The position numbers were made by a program, and so were the translations under genes. Below the pieces are notes generated by a model, which saw nothing but the letters and a program-made list of their open reading frames with translations, was not told the DNA's origin and made no database searches. From the NCBI GenBank assembly GCA_000934665.2, contig KZ538090.1:114493-134492 (forward strand): DNA of 20,000 nt, read 5' to 3'. The stretch is from Catajapyx aquilonaris. Taxonomy: Eukaryota. This document shows positions 2,598-17,860 of this stretch, one piece after another (positions within the stretch are counted from its first letter, which is position 1; each line of letters opens with the position of its first letter).

Positions 2598-5195
2598 ATG
2601 ATGACGGAGACGCAAGGCCAGGAGAGGTCGTCCAATGTGACAACAATTACTCATACGACAGTGGGCAATCCGACGACTGTGACAGTCAAGACCGAACCAG
2701 GACAAGGAGGAGTACAGTGGTTGAAGTTCAATCCAGCGTACTTTGCGACGTTACCAGGAATTCTGCTGCTCATCGAAGCGGTGAGTGCACCTGTTGCCGT
2801 ACAGCGCAGTTGGACAGTGTGACAATTCCATAAGTGTCCACACATTGACGACAATTTAAATGACATAATAACGATTTTGAGCACTTTAAGATGTGCCGCA
2901 TTTGATTAACAGTGTACGCCTCGTTTTATTTCCGTTGCGCCAGCCGCAAATAAGGGCGTTTTGCACTTACATCACCTCTCCATATATGACCAGGTGACGT
3001 AACTTATAATTGTTGACCTATGCAAAAAAAAAGCACGGAAACAATCGCAATTAGCACGATTGTTTACACGTCACTGCTCTAAAAATAACCATAGTTATAT
3101 CAGGAGGGTGCCAAACTGATATTTCATCAATCAACGAATTATATATTCTTAGCCCCCGCACTATACAGGCGTGCCAGTCATACTAATTAACATGCATATG
3201 TGCAGACCTTGGACACCACCACTAACTAGCAGGGCGCATGTGTATGACATGGTGCAAATCTCAATCACTCTTCGTGGGATGGGGGAGTTCATCATCCTTT
3301 TGGTTGGACTTTTATTGCTTCCGATGAGAGGAGGATGAGCGGTGTCTTCTGAAAGCGAATTTGCAAAAAAAAAGGGATAGTTTCCATTCTAAGCTTGAAG
3401 TCGCCGCCGTGGCCTTGGTTGGCTGCTTGCGTTGCATGACGACACTTCCGCTTCGTTTTTACCAAACGTGGCTCGATCTGCCTGCCAGTGAGGAGGTTTG
3501 GCAAAAACGTGGGATAACAGACATGCAATGCAGAAATGATAGGATAGATGAGGCTACTGTGTAATTGGGTGTGCATCAATTAATCAGGGAGTAATTGAAC
3601 CGTAATGAAATTCACATCACGATTAAACTGTGCAACCTAATGAAGATTAATGGCTCTTAGTTATGCCCGACATGTCTGGCTACAAAGTCAATTTGTGAGG
3701 TATTTTTAAACGTTATTGTGAGAAAGTATGTTGTTTACCTTGAACTTTTTCAGGCATTAGGGAAATGCCAGGATTGGAACATGCCGTATGCAAGAATGAC
3801 ACGCAGGTGTTATTTTTGTCTATGGAGGGTCTACATGAATACAGATTACAATGTGGCTTGAGGCATTGTTAGGAATAATACACTGAGGCCATGCTCACCC
3901 TGTATTTTGTAACTGGTTGTATCATTTTATGCACATTGCCATGAGAAAAAATTAGGATGAGCAGACATTTGAAGCACAAATCACGATCCAGTGAACACTT
4001 GCGTAAATATTATAGCAATATTCTGGCTGTTTTCTCAGAAAACGTGGGGCGGGATATCTTATCAGACCGGGAAAGTGTTGGTCCAAATCCCAAGTCTCAT
4101 CGGCTAACTCATGTTTGTGGGAGGAAACAGGGGACTCTTTCTTTATATAATTTTTTCTTCGAAAGTGAAGAAATCAGGCCGCAAAATCCACAAACCTTGG
4201 ACAAACTTTTTCTTTCGGATCCGTTCTTTCGGTTGTCACTGACAGAGAAGATAACAGACGAGAGCGTAGTCCACGCAAAAAACTGTCCAAAACGTCATGA
4301 CCCGAACTGCTTATCATAATACCGATATTATCATGCTCACATGTCTATTTCAGTATGAGCTAAAATGATAATGCTACATGATTACAAAAAGTGCGCAATT
4401 TCCATCCCCAGCATTGCTAAAACTTCCGCAATAAAAAAAGGCTCTAATAGCCTCGTTTAGAGTTGGCTTATTCTGGCTCATGGCCGACCATCAACAGACG
4501 TCGATCACCTTAGTCTGCCCAAATATGCCAATCAATCTGGTTATGGACGTGTTTAAATAAATAAAAAAATTCATTCCTTGCAGCTGCTGGGCATCATCTG
4601 TATGTCCCTGGCATCCCCTGCATACCTCTCAGGGACGCACTGGTTCCTGTTCGTGGTGGTCATCTGCTTCATCATCACAGTCATCATCGTTTTTCTCTAC
4701 CTACTGTCCATTCGAGACGCTCTAAAACTGCCTGTCGACTGGAACAATTTGGTAAGACGCTAATCCAAGGTGCAAGTCAGCAGAAAATATGACAACCCAT
4801 GTTGTACGTTGCAGGAATTCTTCTACACAGTCGGAGCCACGCTGCTGTACTTCACAGCCTTCATTACTCAGCTGGCCATTTGGGCACAGGTTGATCCCTC
4901 GCTTCATTCCTACTACAGTCATGGACGGCAAATTGTCAGCAATATCAAGGCGAAAAATATTGCTGCTGGGGTACGTCATCATATACTTGAACACTTTTAA
5001 TAAAATAATTCGGTTGGATTGGATTGACATATCGTCACCAAATTAATTCCTGGTTGCACATATCCGGTTCGTTGGTGACCTATGTACTGAGACGAATTCT
5101 TTCCTTCACAGGTGATCGCATTATTCAACTGCATCGCTTACGGAATTGGAGCGTTCTTCCTGTACAAGCGTCTGAGGGAAAGCCGCGCAAATTGA
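2598..5195 (+). CDS. MARVEL-domain protein, CMTM4/plasmolipin-like (196 aa)
   Basis: Exons 2598-2780, 4584-4751, 4815-4970 and 5112-5195; all introns GT-AG, phase 0. Kozak-like CACCATG. The spliced protein has NPAYFATLPGILLLIEA|LLGIICMSLASP...HWFLFVVVICFIIT...LPVDW...|EFFYTVGATLLYFTAF...NIAAG|VIALFNCIAYGIGAFFLY, giving four TM helices with the typical MARVEL pattern. Confidence 0.93.
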
Positions 5196-7345: not shown

Positions 7346-7558
7346 ATTGGCTGCAGAATAGGTCGTTTGTGGGAGGGGACCCCATATAAAAAAAAGGAGG
7401 GACTGAGGGGTGGTGGAGGGCACTAGTTGGGTGCGGCCACAAGCATCCTTTTTGCCTTATTTTCCTACGCTCCTAGTTGCGTCCTCACGCTCCAAATAGT
7501 CCAATCATAAAAAATAGAAGTGTATCCTACTTATTACACCACACGATTTGGCGTAAGT
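7346..7558 (+). promoter_or_regulatory. Candidate promoter and non-coding first exon of MARVEL gene 2
   Basis: Reverse CCAAT (ATTGG 7346-7350), TATAAAA at 7385, G-rich tract and a consensus donor GTAAGT at 7553. The ATG exon is preceded by acceptor-like TTCTTCTAG (ending 8156) and CTAACAG (ending 8172). Confidence 0.35.
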
Positions 7559-8178
7559 ATTGCTCACGTCACTTTTTTTTGCAATATACACGCCCAGTTT
7601 GGGTGACGGCAAACCGCGCCCAATTTGAGTGTCACTAGACCGGGCGGCTTTTTTTTTTCTCTCTTCCATATAAGGATAGTCCGTGACCGTGATGCGCTGT
7701 TTATTTTTAGTGACGGATGTGTGTCGTGGATGGGATAATTGTCCGTTTTTGTGTGTGTGTGGTGAGCTGCTAGTGTTTGGGAGAAATTTGAGCTGGTTTG
7801 GTTTGAGGGGGCGGTAAAAGTGGAACAAGCTAGTGGCTTATTTCCTAGCTTTTGACTATTTTTGGTGCAGGCTGAGTTGACGAATTGAACTTCGGGGCAA
7901 CAGCTGTGTTTGAGGTGTCATGCATAGATGCTGATGACATCAGTGCACGGCATTTGTGTTTATATTTAAAATTAGTCGGAAATGCTTGCATGACCCAATT
8001 CTTCAGGAAATAAACCGGTGAAAAATTCTTGGAGGTTGGTAGCCCTCTTCCAAAAAACAAAAAGTAATAAATAAATAAAGATGTCTGCTCGACGTAAAAT
8101 CATAATTTTACTACAGGCCTCTGACCACTATTGAGTGACAATTTGACTTCTTCTAGCGGAAGCTCCTAACAGGTCAAG

Positions 8179-9626
8179 ATGTCCCATACTGTCACAGTGA
8201 CCCATACTACTCACACCACGTCTTCATCTGCCATATTGGTCAACACAGGCTATGCTTCCTCAGTGCCTGGTCTACTTAAGTTGGCCCAAGTGGTATGATC
8301 ATTTACTACAACACAAGTGCAGTAAAATGTGACATGGCAATGAAATAAACGGAATCTTTACAGATTGTGGGTGCAATCTGTGTGGGAATAGTTGGCCACT
8401 ACTTCAGTTACAATACCAGCCGTTACTACAACCTGTATGTATCGGAGCTCTTCTTCCTCCTGATTGCGACGAGCTGTCTGATTGCATCGTCGTGTCTACT
8501 CATTTCCTGCCTGCTCTCTCTCTCCACTGCGGCCATACTCCCAAAGACTCTCTTTGTAAGTAGCATACATGCCATTAAAAAAACTGCTGCATAGTATTTG
8601 AATATTGTATAGAACCGTATTGTACGTTCAACACACTAGGTTCAAGTCTAGTGCACTGGCAGATTTGCTGAGAGTACAAATATACAATTTCATACATTAA
8701 ATTGAACCCTACAATATGGACTGCTCCCATCAACAATGATGGCTACTCAAAGCTACTCCAAGTATGGGTGAACCACCGTGGGGTGAACCATGATAGTACT
8801 CCTGATTTATATTTAAAAAATAAAAGCACCACAGAACATTGGTGAAAGTGGCTCATGTAAATTCTAGGATTGCAATAGTTGAACAATTATTATATTACTC
8901 TTATACATGTAAGTTACATATTCTGAATTTTTATAAAGTGGCCAATTTTAAAACTTGTTTCCAGGAAATAGTTTACCATGGATGTGCATTTGTTTTGTAC
9001 CTTGCTGCTGGTATAACTCTCCTTATTCCTGTGTCTGACAAAAGATATTACTACCATGAGGCTTATCTTGCTGCTGCGGTAAGTCTAGAATTTAAGGCGC
9101 ACAACGTAAAGAAATCACAGGTTGATACCTGATCTGATGTGTGGCATGCCATCACTATTTGCATGATTACCCAGAGTGAAATGACACTATCTTGGATCAG
9201 GATGCACATGTCAACCTCAGCTGATTTCTTTACAGATGGGGGATTCTGTTTGAAACTAGCATTTTCATTTTCCTTAGGTGATTATTTACCTCTCACTGCT
9301 GCTGTTTCTTAATTTTTGTGCTTCACTGAATTTGGTGGTGGATGTCGTAAGAAGAAATGCAATTTACGAATACAGTTTACATGAGAGGGGTTATGGCAGT
9401 AAAATATTTGCGGGGGTGAGTGCCAAATCAAACAAGACTGCTTTCTCATGTAATTAAGAGCATGCATTTTATATCTGAGAATGATTCTTACAATTACCAT
9501 TAATGAGATTGCAATCTGTCATATACATCGTGATTCTTAATTCTGTTTCAGATCCTTGGACTGATCAATGCCGCCCTCTACCTCATCAGTTTGGTGTTTG
9601 CTGTTCGCACATACAGACTGGCATAA
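8179..9626 (+). CDS. MARVEL-domain protein, second paralogue (164 aa with exon 3a)
   Basis: Exons 8179-8292, 8364-8555, 8965-9078 and 9552-9626; GT-AG, phase 0. MSHTVTVTHTTHTTSSSAILVNTGYASSVPGLLKLAQV|IVGAICVGIV...ELFFLLIATSCLI...LPKTLF|EIVYHGCAFVLYLAAG...YLAAA|ILGLINAALYLISLVFAVRTYRLA*. Confidence 0.92.
9106..9233 (+). other. Long intronic stem-loop between exon 3a and exon 3b
   Basis: Three stacked helices: GTAAAGAAATCA (9106-9117) with TGATTTCTTTAC (9222-9233), AGGTTGATA (9119-9127) with TGTCAACCT (9209-9217, one G-U), and CCTGATC (9128-9134) with GATCAGG (9195-9201). Confidence 0.8.
9278..9415 (+). CDS. Putative duplicated alternative exon 3b of MARVEL gene 2 (46 codons)
   Basis: Acceptor TTTTCATTTTCCTTAG, donor GGG|GTGAGT, 138 nt, phase 0/0, no stop. 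It encodes VIIYLSLLLFLNFCASLNLVVDVVRRNAIYEYSLHERGYGSKIFAG, colinear with exon 3a. Confidence 0.75.
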
Positions 9627-10684
9627 ACAACTAAACAAGACTCTCGATTCTTGGATTCACAAGAGCTAGTTATGCATTTAATATCTGTGTGCACATAGAA
9701 AATTAATTTTACATAACTGAATGTCATGAAACAATTGCTTAATTAATATTTTTCATTGCCCTTAGGAAGTGAGATTAACTTAAGGGTTTGTACGCATCTT
9801 TGCAGAAAATTTCAATTATATTTTCTACATTTAATACCATAGTAAATCATGAAATACTTAAATGAACCAGTCAGATGAAAACCAGGACATTCCATTTAAT
9901 AAATTAAACATAGGCTTTTACTGTACTTAAAATAGAAAAGAAACTTGTGCCTTGATGTATAACAAGATGCACTTGCAGTAACTTCACACATAATACCATT
10001 TTGATAGCACAGGAATTTTAAATTGATCTGTTATCTACATGAATCTCGAGAAATGTGTTCACAGGATAGTAATCTAGTAATGAATGTTGTACACATTATA
10101 TAAGATGTTTTCCAATATTTTGCGGACATGAATGCAAACCTGCAAGACTGATAAAGAATGATCTTCAATGCCATACAAAGTCCAGAAAAGACTTGATGAT
10201 ACAAATATTAGGACTTCCACAGCACATCACAAAGTCTTCACAGTGTGAATCTCCTGCTTTTTCAGAGTACAACAAGTGCCATTCTTACGCCTAATGCAAA
10301 GACTTGCCAATGTACTAATACATTCTTCAATAAAGGCCTTATTTAAAGTGATATATCCTTTTAATTGTGACATTTATTAAACAAGCAAATATCATCCAAA
10401 ATTGCAATATATTTAGGACTCAATAGGTTTGTAAATAATTGCTTCAGTATGCACCTAGGCATTCCAGGTGCAACAATGCAGCATGAACTGGATGAAGACA
10501 TAATTATAGTGCATTGTCACTGGAACTCCCAAACACAAACTCCCTGTGTCATCTGACCATTTTTAAAACTGTTAAACTGCTGCAGGTCATCTACCCTGTT
10601 TTTTTTTTTTTTGTGAATGTGTAAAAAAAAAAAATGTAGCTTCCTCATCCAGCCTTCCTCCTCAGCCTCCCAACATTTGGCAGT

Positions 10685-10830: not shown

Positions 10831-12040
10831 ATGAAGTCTAACCATGTGTCAGTGTCAGTGCCACAGCAAAAGTCATCTGGCATTGGTTGTCCATGCTGCT
10901 GCTGTTGTTGCACATGTCTTAACACTGGATTCTTGAAGACCACACCCGGAATTTTGAAAATTGTTCAACTGGTGAGTACTTCTTCCAGTGTGTGTGCATG
11001 TTAATACAATGAACACGTACGGGTACAAGCACACAAGTGATGATTATAAAGGGCCAGCTGCATGATCAATAGTAAATCCAGCAAGTGATTAAAGTGAATA
11101 ATTAGGATCAACTATTTGTTATGGATTTCCACCATGCAACCAGCACTAAAAGTAATAAATGTTGAGAAAAGATATGCACAGAAATGCCTTTTCCCACATT
11201 TTCACTGCAGGTAACTTTTTTTGACAGTTGAACTTCTGGTTTGATCAGTGTTTGCTTCATTTGGCTCATGGTACCCCTGATAAGTGTGCAATAATGCCCC
11301 CTTATCATGGAAATAAAACCATTTTATTATGCCTATGGACGATGACAGTTGCAATATGACATCATAAATTTGCATTTGTTTTCTCTGGGAGATTCTTACA
11401 TTTTCCTCATTCTCAAAATTTAATAAACAATAATCTGAGATTTCTAAAGAAGCACCCCAATAATTAGCATCATGGTCATCTCATTAATCTAATAGAAGAT
11501 ATTCCTTCATAGATTCTGGGAGGCATGTGCCAAAGTCTGCTTGTCAAGTATGGAATGGGCTATTCAGCTGTAATTGGCAGCTCATATTCAACTTTCCTGA
11601 CTACCGCTTCAGCTTGCCTGATGACAACTTCTGTTCTCCTCTTCTGCTACTTAATATCAGACAGATCTCATGGTCTCATCAGGAATTCAAATTTTGTAAG
11701 TATTAATATAATGAATAGAATTGCGTACACTGTTAATTCTTTCCGACATTTTAGGAGGTCATTTTCAATGCCGTGGCATGTGCTTTGTACTTGGGAGCAT
11801 CCTCGTTCCTGTCCTTCTCAGTCAATGTGTTCCTCTGGCCACTTTACATCATAACACCTTTCTTCCAAGTGTATCCAGCTATGACAGCTTGCTATGTGAG
11901 TGTAACCACATTAGATCTAAATTACCTCATGGTATATTTATATTTAATTTTCTCGCCCATAGGTGATGGGTTTAGTGGTTGGAATTCTGCATGGAGTGGA
12001 TGCATATTTTGCATATAAGCAGATCAAGAGTCTCTGCTAG
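10831..12040 (+). CDS. sing: Protein singles bar (MARVEL-domain myoblast fusion protein, 180 aa)
   Basis: Exons 10831-10971, 11513-11695, 11755-11895 and 11963-12040; GT-AG, phase 0. Recognised motifs: Cys-rich CCCCTC..FLKTTPGILK, ILGGMCQSL, FLTTASACLMTT, ITPFFQVYPAMTACY and GILHGVDAY. Confidence 0.92.
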
Positions 12041-12185: not shown

Positions 12186-12491
12186 TCATGGCACTTGACA
12201 ATTGTCATATTTTCTAACAGGTAAAATCCATCACCTTATCCCAACAATCAAAATATATCTACGAACTCACAAAAGTCAGTGAGGAATGTTTGCTTTATGG
12301 CCACATTTGAATCATAGGCAATCACAGTGTTAGTCTTCTACAAACTAATATCAGTCTGCCCGCAAGTCTATGAAGATTCTACACCCTGCTGTTCCCAGTA
12401 ACATTGCATAACACTTACTAATGCCATGCATTTTTTGACTAATGAATACAATGGTCTATTTTAAAGAAGGTTCAAGCTGGACCCTACCTTT

Positions 12492-15400
12492 CTAGCACTT
12501 TCCCAAAACCATGGCCAGAAGAGCCATTCTAACATAGAGCCCATTGGCCACCTGCCTAAAATAAGCAGCCCGTGGATCTGTGTCAAAATCTGTGCTGATC
12601 TCGTTGACCCGAGGCAGGGGGTGCATGACTGCCATATTCCTCTTAGCACGAGTCATCAGTTGTGGAGTAACCACAAAATGACCACAAGCCTAAAAATACC
12701 ATAAAGATTAACTTTCCATGAAGGATTTTTTACATTTATACTGCTCGAGAAATAAATATTACCGATTGATAGCTCTCTTGCGACTCAAATCTTTCTTCCT
12801 GTATGCGAGTCATGTAGAGGATATCAGTATCCGCCAGAACCTCTTCCAGTGTATCAGCTGTGGACTGAACAGTGAAATTTTTTATTCCTGTATTCTTGTG
12901 AAAGGAGTCAAGACTTTGTAATGCAAAGATCTCATGTAGACATAGACACTCTTGATAACTTGACACTTATCTTCTAGCAATTTCACAACAGTTGTGCCAG
13001 CACACTAGGATATGATGTATTGTGACACAACGTACCCCTCAGACTTTCAAGTAACACTTACTATGGTGCATGTGCCTTTGGACCTCACATGTTCCAGAAT
13101 GTGTTCTGGCATCCCCAATCCAGGAGGGTGCACTAAGATCAAGTGCACATTATACAACGTCAGAAGCCTGAAATTGTAAAGTAAATGATACAACTGACAG
13201 GAAAAACTGCTAAAGATACAATAATTAAATTCATACTTAGCCAAGGAGTGAACAGTTCTGCCATGCTTCAAGTCTCCAACCATAGTGACAGTCTGTCCAT
13301 TGACTGTGCCCATCTCTTCCCTGATGGTGAATACATCCAAAAGAGCTTGGGTTGGGTGCTCTCCAACTCCATCTCCAGCATTCAGGACTGGAATTTTGCA
13401 CACTTGATGGGCAGACTGCAAGAAACAGTACATGCACGTCTGTGTGTCTGGGGCATACAAGTTATGCATACTACTCACATTAGCTGCACCAGGATCTGGG
13501 TGTCTCAACACTAATACATCACCAAAGGCACTCACAGTCCGTATTGTGTCTGGGGGAGGAGAAAAAATATTTTAGTCAAGACGTAACTCTATAAGGATGC
13601 CTACCTTTATATCCAGCGATGAAAGGTGTTCAAAACTTAAAAATAACTGTCACTATCACACTTACAATGTTCCTCATTGTTTTGTTGTAAAAAAGGACAT
13701 TTGCCTACTCTTAAATTCAAGGATTCAATTTTCACAATCGAGTCAAACACTTCTTTCCATACGTCTGGTAGACAGAGATCAGGAAATTGAGCCTTTCTGT
13801 ATACATGTGGCATACGCTCTACCCTTCGTCTGGGAAATGAGAAAATTTTCCATATTCTCCAACACGAACTTCGACTGAAAATGCATTGATATCCCATGGT
13901 AAGGCCCTGCCTGCACTTCGAGTTATGGAGAACTTCGAGTTATAGAAATTCGAGTTAGGGAAGTTTATTTCCTATTCTTTTACATTGTCACCAACCAAGC
14001 TCATCATTTTCTTCGACTTATAGAGAACTTCCACTTAGGGAAGTTCGACTTATGTAAGCTTTACTACTGTATCATGATTGCTTGTTTATTTTTTATACCC
14101 CATTGGGAGAATCTGCGCTCCATTAGGGTGGTGGAATACCACCATTGGATGGGGCCAAGGATAGGGAAGGAAGGAAGTGACTGTGGCCTATTGTGTGGAA
14201 GTGATCCCGGAATTGTCCTGGGCGGGCTGTGGAAAACCACAGAAAACCATGGTCAGGATTGCCTGCCCGGGAATCGAACCCAGGACCTCCCGATTAGCAG
14301 TCTGGCTCCTTATCCCCACACACCAACCTGCTTTGGTACAAAACCAAATATCATGAAGAATAATTTGTAAATGAGAATTTTCCTTCCCCTGCCAGACTCC
14401 AATATAAATTTATTATCCATCTTTCCCCACCAGTAATAGAGCCAGTTCTATGATAAAATGCATGTGATCATGACCTGGCAAAACTTGGCTGGTATTAAAG
14501 GAAAGGAGCTCACTGCATTAAACTTTTCGTATGTTATTGAATGCATTGCAAGGGTATGGTACTTCAGTCAGTAACATCAATAAGTACCAGTTTCCAAAGT
14601 GAGAGAACAGCATAATTACCTTCTAGTGTTTCTCCTTTTTGAACTGAAGAACTCCTCGAGTCAATATGAATCACGTTTCCACCAAGTTTGTACATAGCAG
14701 ATGCAAAACTGCAACTGGTTCTAGTGCTCACTTCATAGAAGACTGATGACATGACCTTCCCCTGTGACAAAATGACTCAATTATTTTGGCATAAAACTAA
14801 AAGACAATTTGGTATTACAGTATCAAGCATAATGAGGATGGATTTTTCCAGCCTGATAAATCTGTACGATTGACCACCAGATGAACATCAGTGAAAAATT
14901 CATGACATTCTCCCCGTGTTCCCCTTCCACCCATGAGCGGCATGTACCTCTAGGATATTGGTCCTCCTCTCCTTCTTCAGTAATTCAGCATGGTGGAACA
15001 CTGCATTCAACTGCTCCTTTGTGAACATGTCCACAGAGAGGATAGATTTTCCTTGTAATCCATGGGAACCACCAAGCCCACCACCAACTGTACCAGCAAA
15101 AGGAGACACAGGGCGTAAACCATCTCCTCTCACCCGGAAGTCTTCTGACAGCCTTTCACTACTCAGGGCTCTTATGCCTAATTCAGTAAGCATGGTGGAA
15201 TAAATGCCTGGAAATACAACAAACACTGCTTTGTAAGCAAAAAATTAATGCTATGCTAAGAATTTCATCATAAATCTATTTTACTCGACCCATTTGACCA
15301 CCTACAAAAATTGTCATATCATCATCATCATCATTGAATCTAATGTTTGCTGGCAGATTTATCAAAAGATGTGGGGCACCTTATCAAGGCAAGTGATTGG

Positions 15401-16606
15401 GACCTAGGGTAAAACTGGTGAAGTTGAGGAATAATCACATGTTTCCATGGGCATGCAAAGTTGTCTCTGGCAGAATTTGGAATATGTACTAACCTCACTC
15501 TCACTACACATGTGCAAAATTAACAATGAAACAGGAATCATCTCCCTTTATCTATTTCTTAAGATCCAATTTTATCTCATACATCAACAAAATCAAGCCA
15601 TGGAAACACCATCATCAATCTCCTGCTTCAACAGTTCACGTCCAGTTTCTTATCCCACTCACTAAGTCACGTTCCAAAGACATGCCAATTCCAGGAATCA
15701 ATTGCACAGTCCATTAACAAAACAAGCGGGTAGATCAGGCACAAGAAGTTTATACTACGAGACAAAGAACCAGTGGCACATTTTCTTTAGAGAGATTTAA
15801 AAGAAGTGTTCGGGATATGACAAAGAAAAATTTTCAATAAAAGTTATCATGCATGAGAAATTTGCAAAAGCAATAATGGGTTACTGTTAGTCTCTCGCTC
15901 TGCATCCACATGACGGTTAACTTGTGCAGCAGCTTCCCTGACCACAGTTGCAATCACAGGTGTCACTTGAGTCTTCTCCACTATAGGTGGTTCAGTGATG
16001 TTGATGTTCAAGGTGTCAACAGTCATCTCCCTCTGCCATTCCCGTACATCCTCCCCAAAACCAGCTGGTGCCAGGACCTATGACAATAATGATAATAATA
16101 AATCCTGTTATTTTAAGAAACTGTTAAATTTTTTGTTGCCGTGATAAATCCCTTAAATCGTCCCCTGGAATTAATTTTGCTTGTTTTGCAAATAGTACAC
16201 TTCATTCAAATTAGAACTCCCAAGAGGTAGTCAAAATTTCGGGTAACATCCTTGGTTCAATGTAATCTTTCCTCTACGTTAGTATTACCCACTAATAACA
16301 ATTTATGACCTGAGAAACAGTTCACATCTAAAAACAATGACAAATATTACTGTTGAGAATGAATTAGACCTCACTGGTCTCTGTATTTACCTCACCATCA
16401 ACATAGGCAACCTCTCCTCTAAGTACCACTCGGGTGACAGCCCCCTTAACTTTCATGCCTGCAAAGGGGGTCCACTTTGCCTTGCTGAAGTTGGTTGTGT
16501 CTGGAATGACCCACTCTTGCTCCATGTCCACTTCAATGTATGTATGAGGCTGTTCAGGTAGGTTAAAAATACGCTTTGGGTTGTGATGCAGCCTGCTGAC
16601 CAAGTC
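12492..16606 (-). CDS. CAD: CAD multifunctional protein (rudimentary), C-terminal 488 aa: end of dihydroorotase, linker and aspartate transcarbamylase; 5'-partial
   Basis: Exons in transcript order: 16606-16391, 16077-15885, 15207-14948, 14761-14620, 13549-13479, 13415-13237, 13167-13062, 12864-12763 and 12689-12492. All are GT-AG with consistent phases. Motifs: [96 protein letters not shown] and VRMALL. No upstream exon was found in 16607-20000. Confidence 0.97.
13916..14071. mobile_element. One end of a pogo/Tigger-like (Tc1/mariner) element or MITE
   Basis: Six copies of a TTCGA(G/C)TTA-type motif in two clusters of three, ending in ...TTTACTACTG|TA. No partner TIR was found. Confidence 0.55.
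14078..14337 (-). mobile_element. tRNA-derived SINE, Talua-like
   Basis: On the - strand: A-box-like TGGTGTGTGG, B box GGTTCGATTCC (GGAATCGAACC on +, about 14270-14280) and an A-rich tail near 14080-14097. The body GGAAGGAAG..GTGGCCTA..ATCCCGG..GGAAAACCAC..GTCAGGAT resembles polyneopteran Talua-type SINEs as I recall them. Confidence 0.8.
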
Positions 16607-16781
16607 CTGTGAAACAAAACGTGCCCATCCAGAATTATATTTAAAACAACATGATATAGGGTATTACTCCTAACAAATGGCAATATTCACAAATTGCTGA
16701 TAAAAAATAATTGCTTGGGTGAAGGAGAGGTAGAAAACAATTCTAACGTACGTTTTGGACACTATTTGTACAACCAATACA

Positions 16782-16801: not shown

Positions 16802-17241
16802 CTACATTGCATACATCATATAGGATCCAATTTCTTCACAAAACTAAGAATTTTAGAACTAAAACATAGTGTGTACCAAATGAGGTGTTGGTTTTTATTG
16901 GTGATGCAACAGGCTGGTTATTGTTAAACAGTTTCTTTAAGATTTTCTGAAAAATTAGCTGCTAAACACACATTATGTATTCTAATAATATTATTCTGTT
17001 AACAGGCAGCTCCTGCTCACCACCTGATCAAAATGGCACCCTACTGGCGCCACACCTAGGGGCCACTTAGACCACATTGTATCTTTTGCACAACAAATTC
17101 CGAAAGTAACATTGCACTACATTGGTTTCATGAGAGATAAAGATGATTATGGGCTAGAAAAAGTACATTTCAAGAGGGTGACTAAACAATAAACATAAAA
17201 TAATCTCTATATATAAATGTGAATATTTGTACATATGTATA

Positions 17242-17638
17242 CAGGGTGGTCCAACTTTTTTGTCCGATCAGTTATTGACAAATTCGGCCTAAGCTGCTTA
17301 TGTTGTAGTGCGTTACCTGGCAACTCCGGCCGGCGGGCCAATTCAAACATCAGCACATGGAGAGTGCTTAGATGAGCACCATGTCGCACCTCTCAGAGTT
17401 GGAGTATGTGCAGGTTCTCATGGTGCTCCTCTGCCACTGGGGCCAGGTTAATTGTGTATTATTAGAGCCCTGGAAGCTCTTGGCTTATAAAAATTTATAA
17501 ATTTTGTTAATACTCGTCTCCATGTGCTGATGTTTGAATTGGCCCGCCGACCGGGGTTGCCAGGTAACGCACTACAACATAAGCAGCTTAGGCCGAATTT
17601 ATCAATAGCTGTTCGGACAAAAAAGTTGGACCACCCTG
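17242..17638. mobile_element. Tc1/mariner-type MITE, 397 bp, with 122-bp TIRs
   Basis: TA|CAGGGTGGTCCAAC...GTTGGACCACCCTG|TA. TIRs 17242-17363 and 17517-17638 differ at 5 positions, with a TA target duplication. Confidence 0.93.
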
Positions 17639-17860
17639 TATTTATTTATCACGCCTAATTAAGCCACTTCCTGGGTACGCAGAGCGCTGAAATTTCTTCC
17701 ACCCATGCCTTACCTATCGGTGAACCTGGGAAAAGTCCCAAAACCGCACTTTTTTGAGTCTAAGGGCGGTTTTCAGCAGCCTTTCCAATTGTCTAGCAAC
17801 CTTCGCTGACAACAAGCCAAAAGGAAGGATCTGCCTGTCTCACTCATGTCAGGGAGCATA

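Follow-up and report, generated by a model that had tools for sequence, protein, structure and literature searches.

A 138-nt segment at positions 9278-9415, in the 473-nt intron between exon 3a and the last exon of a four-helix MARVEL-like gene of Catajapyx aquilonaris, is very probably a real exon-derived element. We refer to the segment as 3b and to the gene as gene 2. Our tentative interpretation, to which we give slightly less than an even chance, is that 3b is a true copy of exon 3 that has diverged strongly and been kept as a regulated alternative exon replacing 3a. The main mRNA, with exons 1-2-3a-4, was seen in RNA; a minor or condition-specific mRNA, 1-2-3b-4, would accompany it. The window, by which we mean the whole 20,000-nt stretch that was analysed (from contig KZ538090.1), carries on its plus strand three small paralogous genes with four phase-0 coding exons apiece:

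2598-2780, 4584-4751, 4815-4970 and 5112-5195, plus strand: coding exons of gene 1
8179-8292, 8364-8555, 8965-9078 and 9552-9626, plus strand: coding exons of gene 2 (MARVEL-like)
10831-10971, 11513-11695, 11755-11895 and 11963-12040, plus strand: coding exons of gene 3 (singles bar orthologue)

Gene 2 lies directly upstream of gene 3. A search with exon 2 of gene 3 returned 17 proteins at E <= 10 among 31 candidates, all 54-63% identical and mostly lepidopteran; several of them bear the name "protein singles bar" or a Pfam MARVEL annotation, and the Papilio sing orthologue (P0003) scores 35.0 bits in the Pfam MARVEL model, above its cutoff of 32.8. On these grounds gene 3 is the singles bar orthologue, and an identity of roughly 60% in this exon relates the organism to Lepidoptera; the description of gene 2 in the earlier note as a neighbor of the fusion gene sing is borne out. 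Like Drosophila singles bar and its lepidopteran orthologues, gene 2 belongs to a small four-helix family with four phase-0 coding exons; unlike them, the gene that bears 3b is the upstream paralogue and not sing itself. A fused gene model from Choristoneura (P0018) opens with the gene-2 orthologue, in which a 3a-like exon is present, and continues with exon 2 of sing; the order of gene 2 followed by sing is therefore conserved. The gene-2 part of this model reaches 28.7 bits with Pfam MARVEL (PF01284), below the 32.8 cutoff. Exon 2 of gene 2 is 71% identical to P0001, which is a relative's unspliced genomic reading frame running into the intron and is therefore uninformative on exon 3. In genes 1 and 3, the introns that match the 3b-bearing one are 141 and 67 nt long, with no extra exon inside.

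Three deposited Choristoneura models (P0018, P0017, and P0008) share one locus tag, and all contain joining errors. In P0018 the gene-2 orthologue is fused to singles bar; P0008 leaves out exon 3 of sing; and P0017, like P0018, is missing part of sing exon 2 and continues beyond the donor of exon 3. They are usable for synteny, not as evidence on isoforms. In an Atlas feature search, residues 1-98 of P0018 came closest to MAL/MARVEL clusters (best score 0.91); at rank 22 of that search stood an arthropod cluster of 171-aa proteins with DUF7775 (28% of members) and MARVEL (26%), a family to which genes 1 and 2 may belong. A metagenome locus (L001), the sole one found in a scan with the sing alignment, is on a GC-rich contig without a real match to any of the 12 exon peptides and was therefore rejected as spurious.

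The exons of gene 2 follow from a 1255-nt spliced RNA contig, whose pieces are all the exons listed here other than 3b and whose every joint spans GT..AG; all splice sites of the gene, including those of 3b, are GT..AG:

7477-7552, plus strand: 5' untranslated exon of gene 2 (contig piece; joint 7552>8157 across a GT..AG intron)
8157-8292, plus strand: start-codon exon, with ATG at 8179 and 38 aa coding (contig piece and joint to exon 2; translation)
8364-8555, plus strand: exon 2, 64 aa, part of helix 1 and helix 2 (contig piece; joint 8555>8965; translation)
8965-9078, plus strand: exon 3a, 114 nt, 38 aa, helix 3, short outer loop, and start of helix 4 (contig piece; joint to 9552)
9278-9415, plus strand: candidate exon 3b, 138 nt, 46 aa, hydrophobic helix and 18-residue polar loop, ending in KIFAG (open frame, splice signals, profile fit, and codon signal)
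9552-10288, plus strand: last exon, 24 aa, rest of helix 4 and C-terminus, stop at 9624-9626, 3' UTR (contig piece; translation)

The RNA comes from a single public run with no library kind on record and of unknown tissue, in which 2 of 85,611 contigs match the window. Exon 3a is the form present in this RNA: the sole spliced contig passes from 9078 straight to 9552, leaving 3b out. No contig of the run lies on 9115-9537, and gaps between contigs prove nothing; because this is one sample and contigs drop rare forms, the spliced contig does not show that 3b is never used. The contig differs from the window at two positions, A>G at 8204 (exon 1) and T>G at 9896 (3' UTR), for which allelic or strain variation is the simplest reading. 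The second contig (7879-8118, 240 nt, depth 2.2) falls within the intron that separates the 5' untranslated exon from the ATG exon and may represent either unspliced RNA or an alternative first exon.

Segment 3b has the architecture of an internal exon. As the earlier note had described it, it is stop-free in frame 0 over all 138 nt, in phase 0/0 like 3a, with a strong acceptor and a GTGAGT donor. The letters before it are ...tttcattttccttag, those after it gtgagt. The 17 nt upstream of it have a pyrimidine fraction of 0.76 and the acceptor ends in TAG, which is itself the opening in-frame stop of the 3b frame; at the other end the frame extends to 9457, giving 59 aa from stop to stop. Its splice signals are at least as strong as those of 3a, with an acceptor pyrimidine fraction of 0.76 versus 0.65 and donors that match at 6/6 positions in both. 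Exons 3a and 3b are neighbors of similar size (114 and 138 nt) in the same phase 0/0, separated by an intron of 199 nt, and 136 nt lie between 3b and exon 4. Since 3b has signals no weaker than those of 3a and yet is skipped in the observed mRNA, it must be regulated if it is functional.

An indication of where 3b comes from is its fit to exon 3 of the family. The exon-3 region was aligned in 13 rows (the three paralogues of the window, the 3a-like exon of Choristoneura, and nine sing orthologues), and each exon-3 profile made from this alignment omitted one paralogue group in turn. The true exons thus held out scored 8.7 and 10.3 bits (gene 2 group), 4.3 bits (gene 1), and 8.0 bits (gene 3), and 3b scored 4.6-6.4 bits against the leave-one-out profiles; it fits the family about as well as a held-out true paralogue exon. 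This score was reached by 0, 3, 0, and 1 of 178 hydrophobic decoys (3b beats 174-178 of the 178) and by 15-41 of 1000 composition-preserving half-shuffles.

The pair of 3a and 3b, taken by itself, does not support the term "tandem-duplicated" that the segment had been given. The gapless alignment from residue 1 indeed contains the identities reported for it, 6 in 23 positions (I2, Y4, L11, A15, L19, and V23), and the exons end as reported, in KIFAG (3b), YLAAA (3a), and NIAAG (gene 1). The protein local score of 29, however, is marginal and not significant, being reached by 114 of 2000 shuffles, and similarity at the DNA level is nil (score 16 versus a shuffle mean of 16.1; 283 of 500 shuffles as high). 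The intron DNA flanking 3a and 3b shows no similarity either; there is thus no trace of a recent duplication. The pairwise test is low in power, because true paralogue exon-3 pairs are weak in it too, their scores being reached by 2, 27, and 404 of 2000 shuffles. Segment 3b is as distant from 3a as from the other paralogues; any duplication would therefore be old, or the copy fast-evolving.

It is quite possible that 3b is a silent relic or pseudo-exon, that is, a former copy of exon 3, or exon 3 of a lost tandem paralogue, which is no longer spliced and has not yet decayed. The sole mRNA observed skips it, and three of the most conserved exon-3 residues are replaced in it, the invariant E1 by V, the near-invariant A8 by L, and the invariant Y12 by N, each replacement being possibly a single base change. 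Its codon log-odds, +0.083 per codon, are inside the range of true exons (-0.13 to 0.45; 19 exon pieces), at the low end. Database searches returned no 3b-like peptide: among proteins of 82-2000 aa there were 10 word-sharing candidates, all above E = 10; among 1.84 billion cluster representatives there was no match at E <= 0.001; and the ESM Atlas gave no usable match. These protein searches are low in power, as exon 2 of gene 2 found a single relative (P0001) and missed P0018, which is in the database, and in a library clustered at 50% an alternative isoform would probably share a cluster with the main one. On the other side, both splice sites of 3b are intact and no stop interrupts its 46 codons in this AT-rich DNA. 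Its distance from every paralogue points to a long history, and without selection the frame and splice sites of such an old copy should have broken. A retained and regulated exon would account for this preservation.

A chance origin is improbable. In that case 3b would be T-rich intron in which, by accident, no stop fell between an AG and a GT, its T-rich codons reading as hydrophobic residues. The similarity of the 3a-3b pair within the shuffle range would agree with this, as would the family positions that 3b retains (Y4, L11, F13, and A15), all of them hydrophobic or small and of a kind that any hydrophobic segment can match; moreover, the stop that opens the frame belongs to the acceptor, and the segment was picked after the fact. 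Three largely independent tests nevertheless speak against chance: exon architecture, family fit, and codon bias. For the first, we scanned both strands of the window (40 kb) for frames of 90-240 nt, open in phase 0, that lie between an acceptor with >=70% pyrimidines and Y at -3 and a donor matching >=5/6 positions of GTRAGT. This strict scan gave five hits, four on known or evident exons and the fifth on 3b. A loose scan gave 62 hits, seven of them with a perfect GTRAGT donor; these are 3b and rows ending at the donors of 3a, of exon 3 of gene 3, and of an exon on the strand of a putative CAD gene, and the window holds no other perfect-donor decoy. A third-order model derived from the non-coding DNA of the window itself yielded, over 3 Mb of simulated sequence, 8 pseudo-exons of 3b quality, which corresponds to 0.0013 per 473-nt intron and to about 0.1 per 40 kb on both strands, and 0 of the 8 had a helix-like hydrophobic stretch. 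An architecture of this kind is unlikely to be due to chance. The profile fit, which nearly all hydrophobic decoys fail to reach, is the second test. The third, the coding signal, is weak: codon log-odds are positive in frame 0 and negative in the two other frames (-0.54 and -0.41), and the frame-0 score is reached by 861 of 16083 stop-free decoys and by 4 of 70 hydrophobic decoys.

The isoform lengths predicted for gene 2 were confirmed by translation: 164 aa with 3a, 172 aa with 3b, and 210 aa with both exons; with neither, the protein has 126 aa. We scored these forms with a full-length family profile made from the sing orthologues and genes 1 and 3, with gene 2 excluded, which serves as a stand-in for Pfam; single exons of gene 2 gave no MARVEL match in Pfam, the pieces being too short. 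Helices were counted by a 19-residue hydropathy scan, which uses a simple scale and is not a trained predictor:

3a form: 48.0 bits, 4 hydropathy regions
3b form: 37.7 bits in one end-to-end match, 4 hydropathy regions
Both-exon form: 43.1 bits, split into two matches, 5 hydropathy regions
Neither-exon (skipped) form: 29.1 bits, 3 hydropathy regions

The 3b form gains 8.6 bits over the skipped form. When the 1-2-3b-4 protein is checked in this way, as had been suggested, it remains below the 3a form in bits and retains four helices in the hydropathy scan, the number that characterizes MARVEL proteins and that the 3a form shows as well. The proposed swap of TM3 and the second outer loop is thus compatible with the protein layout, while the sole spliced contig, which skips 3b, counts against it. 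In the 3b form, helix 3 would present a different face and the second outer loop would grow from about 9 residues, as in 3a, to about 18, with helices 1, 2, and most of 4 unchanged. Two arginines open the 3b loop, right after its helix, on the side predicted to be outward, a placement that would be mildly unfavourable.

Inclusion of 3b as a cassette exon together with 3a, a reading that overlaps with use of 3b in general, is very unlikely: both exons keep the frame, the flanking introns of 199 and 136 nt permit joint inclusion, and the arginines of 3b would then face the cytoplasm, but the 210-aa product has five hydrophobic segments (the added fifth helix that the earlier note had foreseen) and would have an inverted C-terminus, the family profile splits it in two at 43.1 versus 48.0 bits for the 3a form, a fifth helix departs from the four-helix layout of 13/13 aligned relatives, and the contig carries 3a without 3b.

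Replacement of 3a by 3b would be the more likely use, yet the exclusivity that the earlier note had proposed is not built into the gene: the reading frame is kept when both exons are included and 199 nt separate them, and therefore neither frame nor spacing enforces it. Use of 3b would instead be under active control, possibly through complementary RNA segments that bracket 3a and 3b. The candidate elements are the following:

8852-8867, plus strand: element in intron 2, complementary to 9371-9385 in 3b (13/15) and to 9085-9094 just past the 3a donor (10/10)
9106-9233, plus strand: long imperfect hairpin in the 3a-3b intron, arms ~9106-9134 and 9204-9233 (12-nt perfect inverted repeat and fold; putative role)
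9444-9453, plus strand: element 29 nt past the 3b donor, complementary (10/10) to 9377-9386 inside 3b

The region 8556-9551 contains 4 perfect inverted repeats of at least 10 nt versus 0.82 expected, a number reached by 4 of 300 shuffles. The 3a-3b intron folds at -53 kcal/mol (z -1.95), and 7 of 200 shuffles fold as well; the fold of the whole of 8556-9551 is unremarkable (z -0.68). An Rfam search of 7400-10400 gave 0 matches. The hairpin was also considered as a repeated mobile element and this was rejected, as it is present in a single copy within the window. Pairing of the intron-2 element with 9085-9094 past the 3a donor would loop 3a out. It is conceivable, if rather unlikely, that 3a and 3b are mutually exclusive and that the choice is set by competing pairings of the 3b element at 9371-9386 with 8852-8866 or with 9444-9453. 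As the pairing elements are short, AT-rich, and without comparative support, we treat them as a lead and not as evidence. If true, an RNA-pairing-set swap of 3a and 3b would be the first internal exon swap described in the singles-bar family, and it would vary the outer surface of a protein encoded beside a cell-fusion gene.

Mutually exclusive exons already exist in the MARVEL superfamily. In vertebrate MARVELD3, mutually exclusive homologous exons E3a and E3b encode the MARVEL domain, and across vertebrates each form is conserved or the forms are split between paralogues (PMC4494069). The statement of the earlier note that no such exons were known to it in this family is therefore too broad for MARVEL proteins at large (PMC4494069), and stands for insect singles-bar-like genes, in which our literature search found no alternative exons described. 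On the one hand, MARVELD3 resembles the candidate in gene 2 in that the membrane domain of a MARVEL protein is varied by alternative exons; on the other hand, its alternative exons are long and terminal in the coding sequence, a whole four-helix domain is encoded by either of them, and both isoforms are documented (PMC4494069). The candidate in gene 2 is a 46-aa internal exon, and its swap would be confined to helix 3 and the second outer loop.

Another parallel is offered by the adjacent exons of gene 2, which are in the same phase, of similar length, and surrounded by complementary segments, like those of Dscam1, 14-3-3 zeta, and Mhc. The tandem mutually exclusive exons of these arthropod genes are governed by competing RNA pairings; every variant is clearly homologous to the others and appears in RNA, and different species share the pairings. 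In gene 2, unlike in these genes, the two exons are not significantly alike as a pair, and only 3a was seen in RNA. With tandem alternative exons in arthropods and MARVELD3 in vertebrates, this kind of event is already known.

If 3b is used, one gene makes a small four-helix protein with two outer surfaces, beside the family member singles bar, which acts in myoblast fusion. The molecular action of MARVEL proteins in membrane apposition is poorly understood, and a used 3b would be a natural experiment on which helix and loop matter in these proteins, as well as an unannotated isoform for insect gene sets. An unused 3b would be a dead exon, preserved unusually well but of minor interest.

Other features of the window deserve a brief mention. 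Exon 1 of gene 3 (10831-10971) encodes a cysteine run, C-P-C-C-C-C-C-C-T-C, near the N-terminus of the singles bar orthologue; it aligns with the KCCCCRCCEC motif in 9/9 lepidopteran orthologues of the alignment and looks like a lipid-attachment cluster. On the minus strand, open frames at 12400-16700 resemble aspartate carbamoyltransferase and dihydroorotase and lie tail to tail with singles bar; judged from their translations, the frames from ~12.4 kb may be read as a CAD/rudimentary-like gene. Farther on, frames on opposite strands at 17223-17375 (plus) and 17448-17645 (minus) encode near-identical peptides (…SALPGN.GRRANSNISTWR…); the pair therefore appears to form an inverted repeat, which is probably the remnant of a mobile element.
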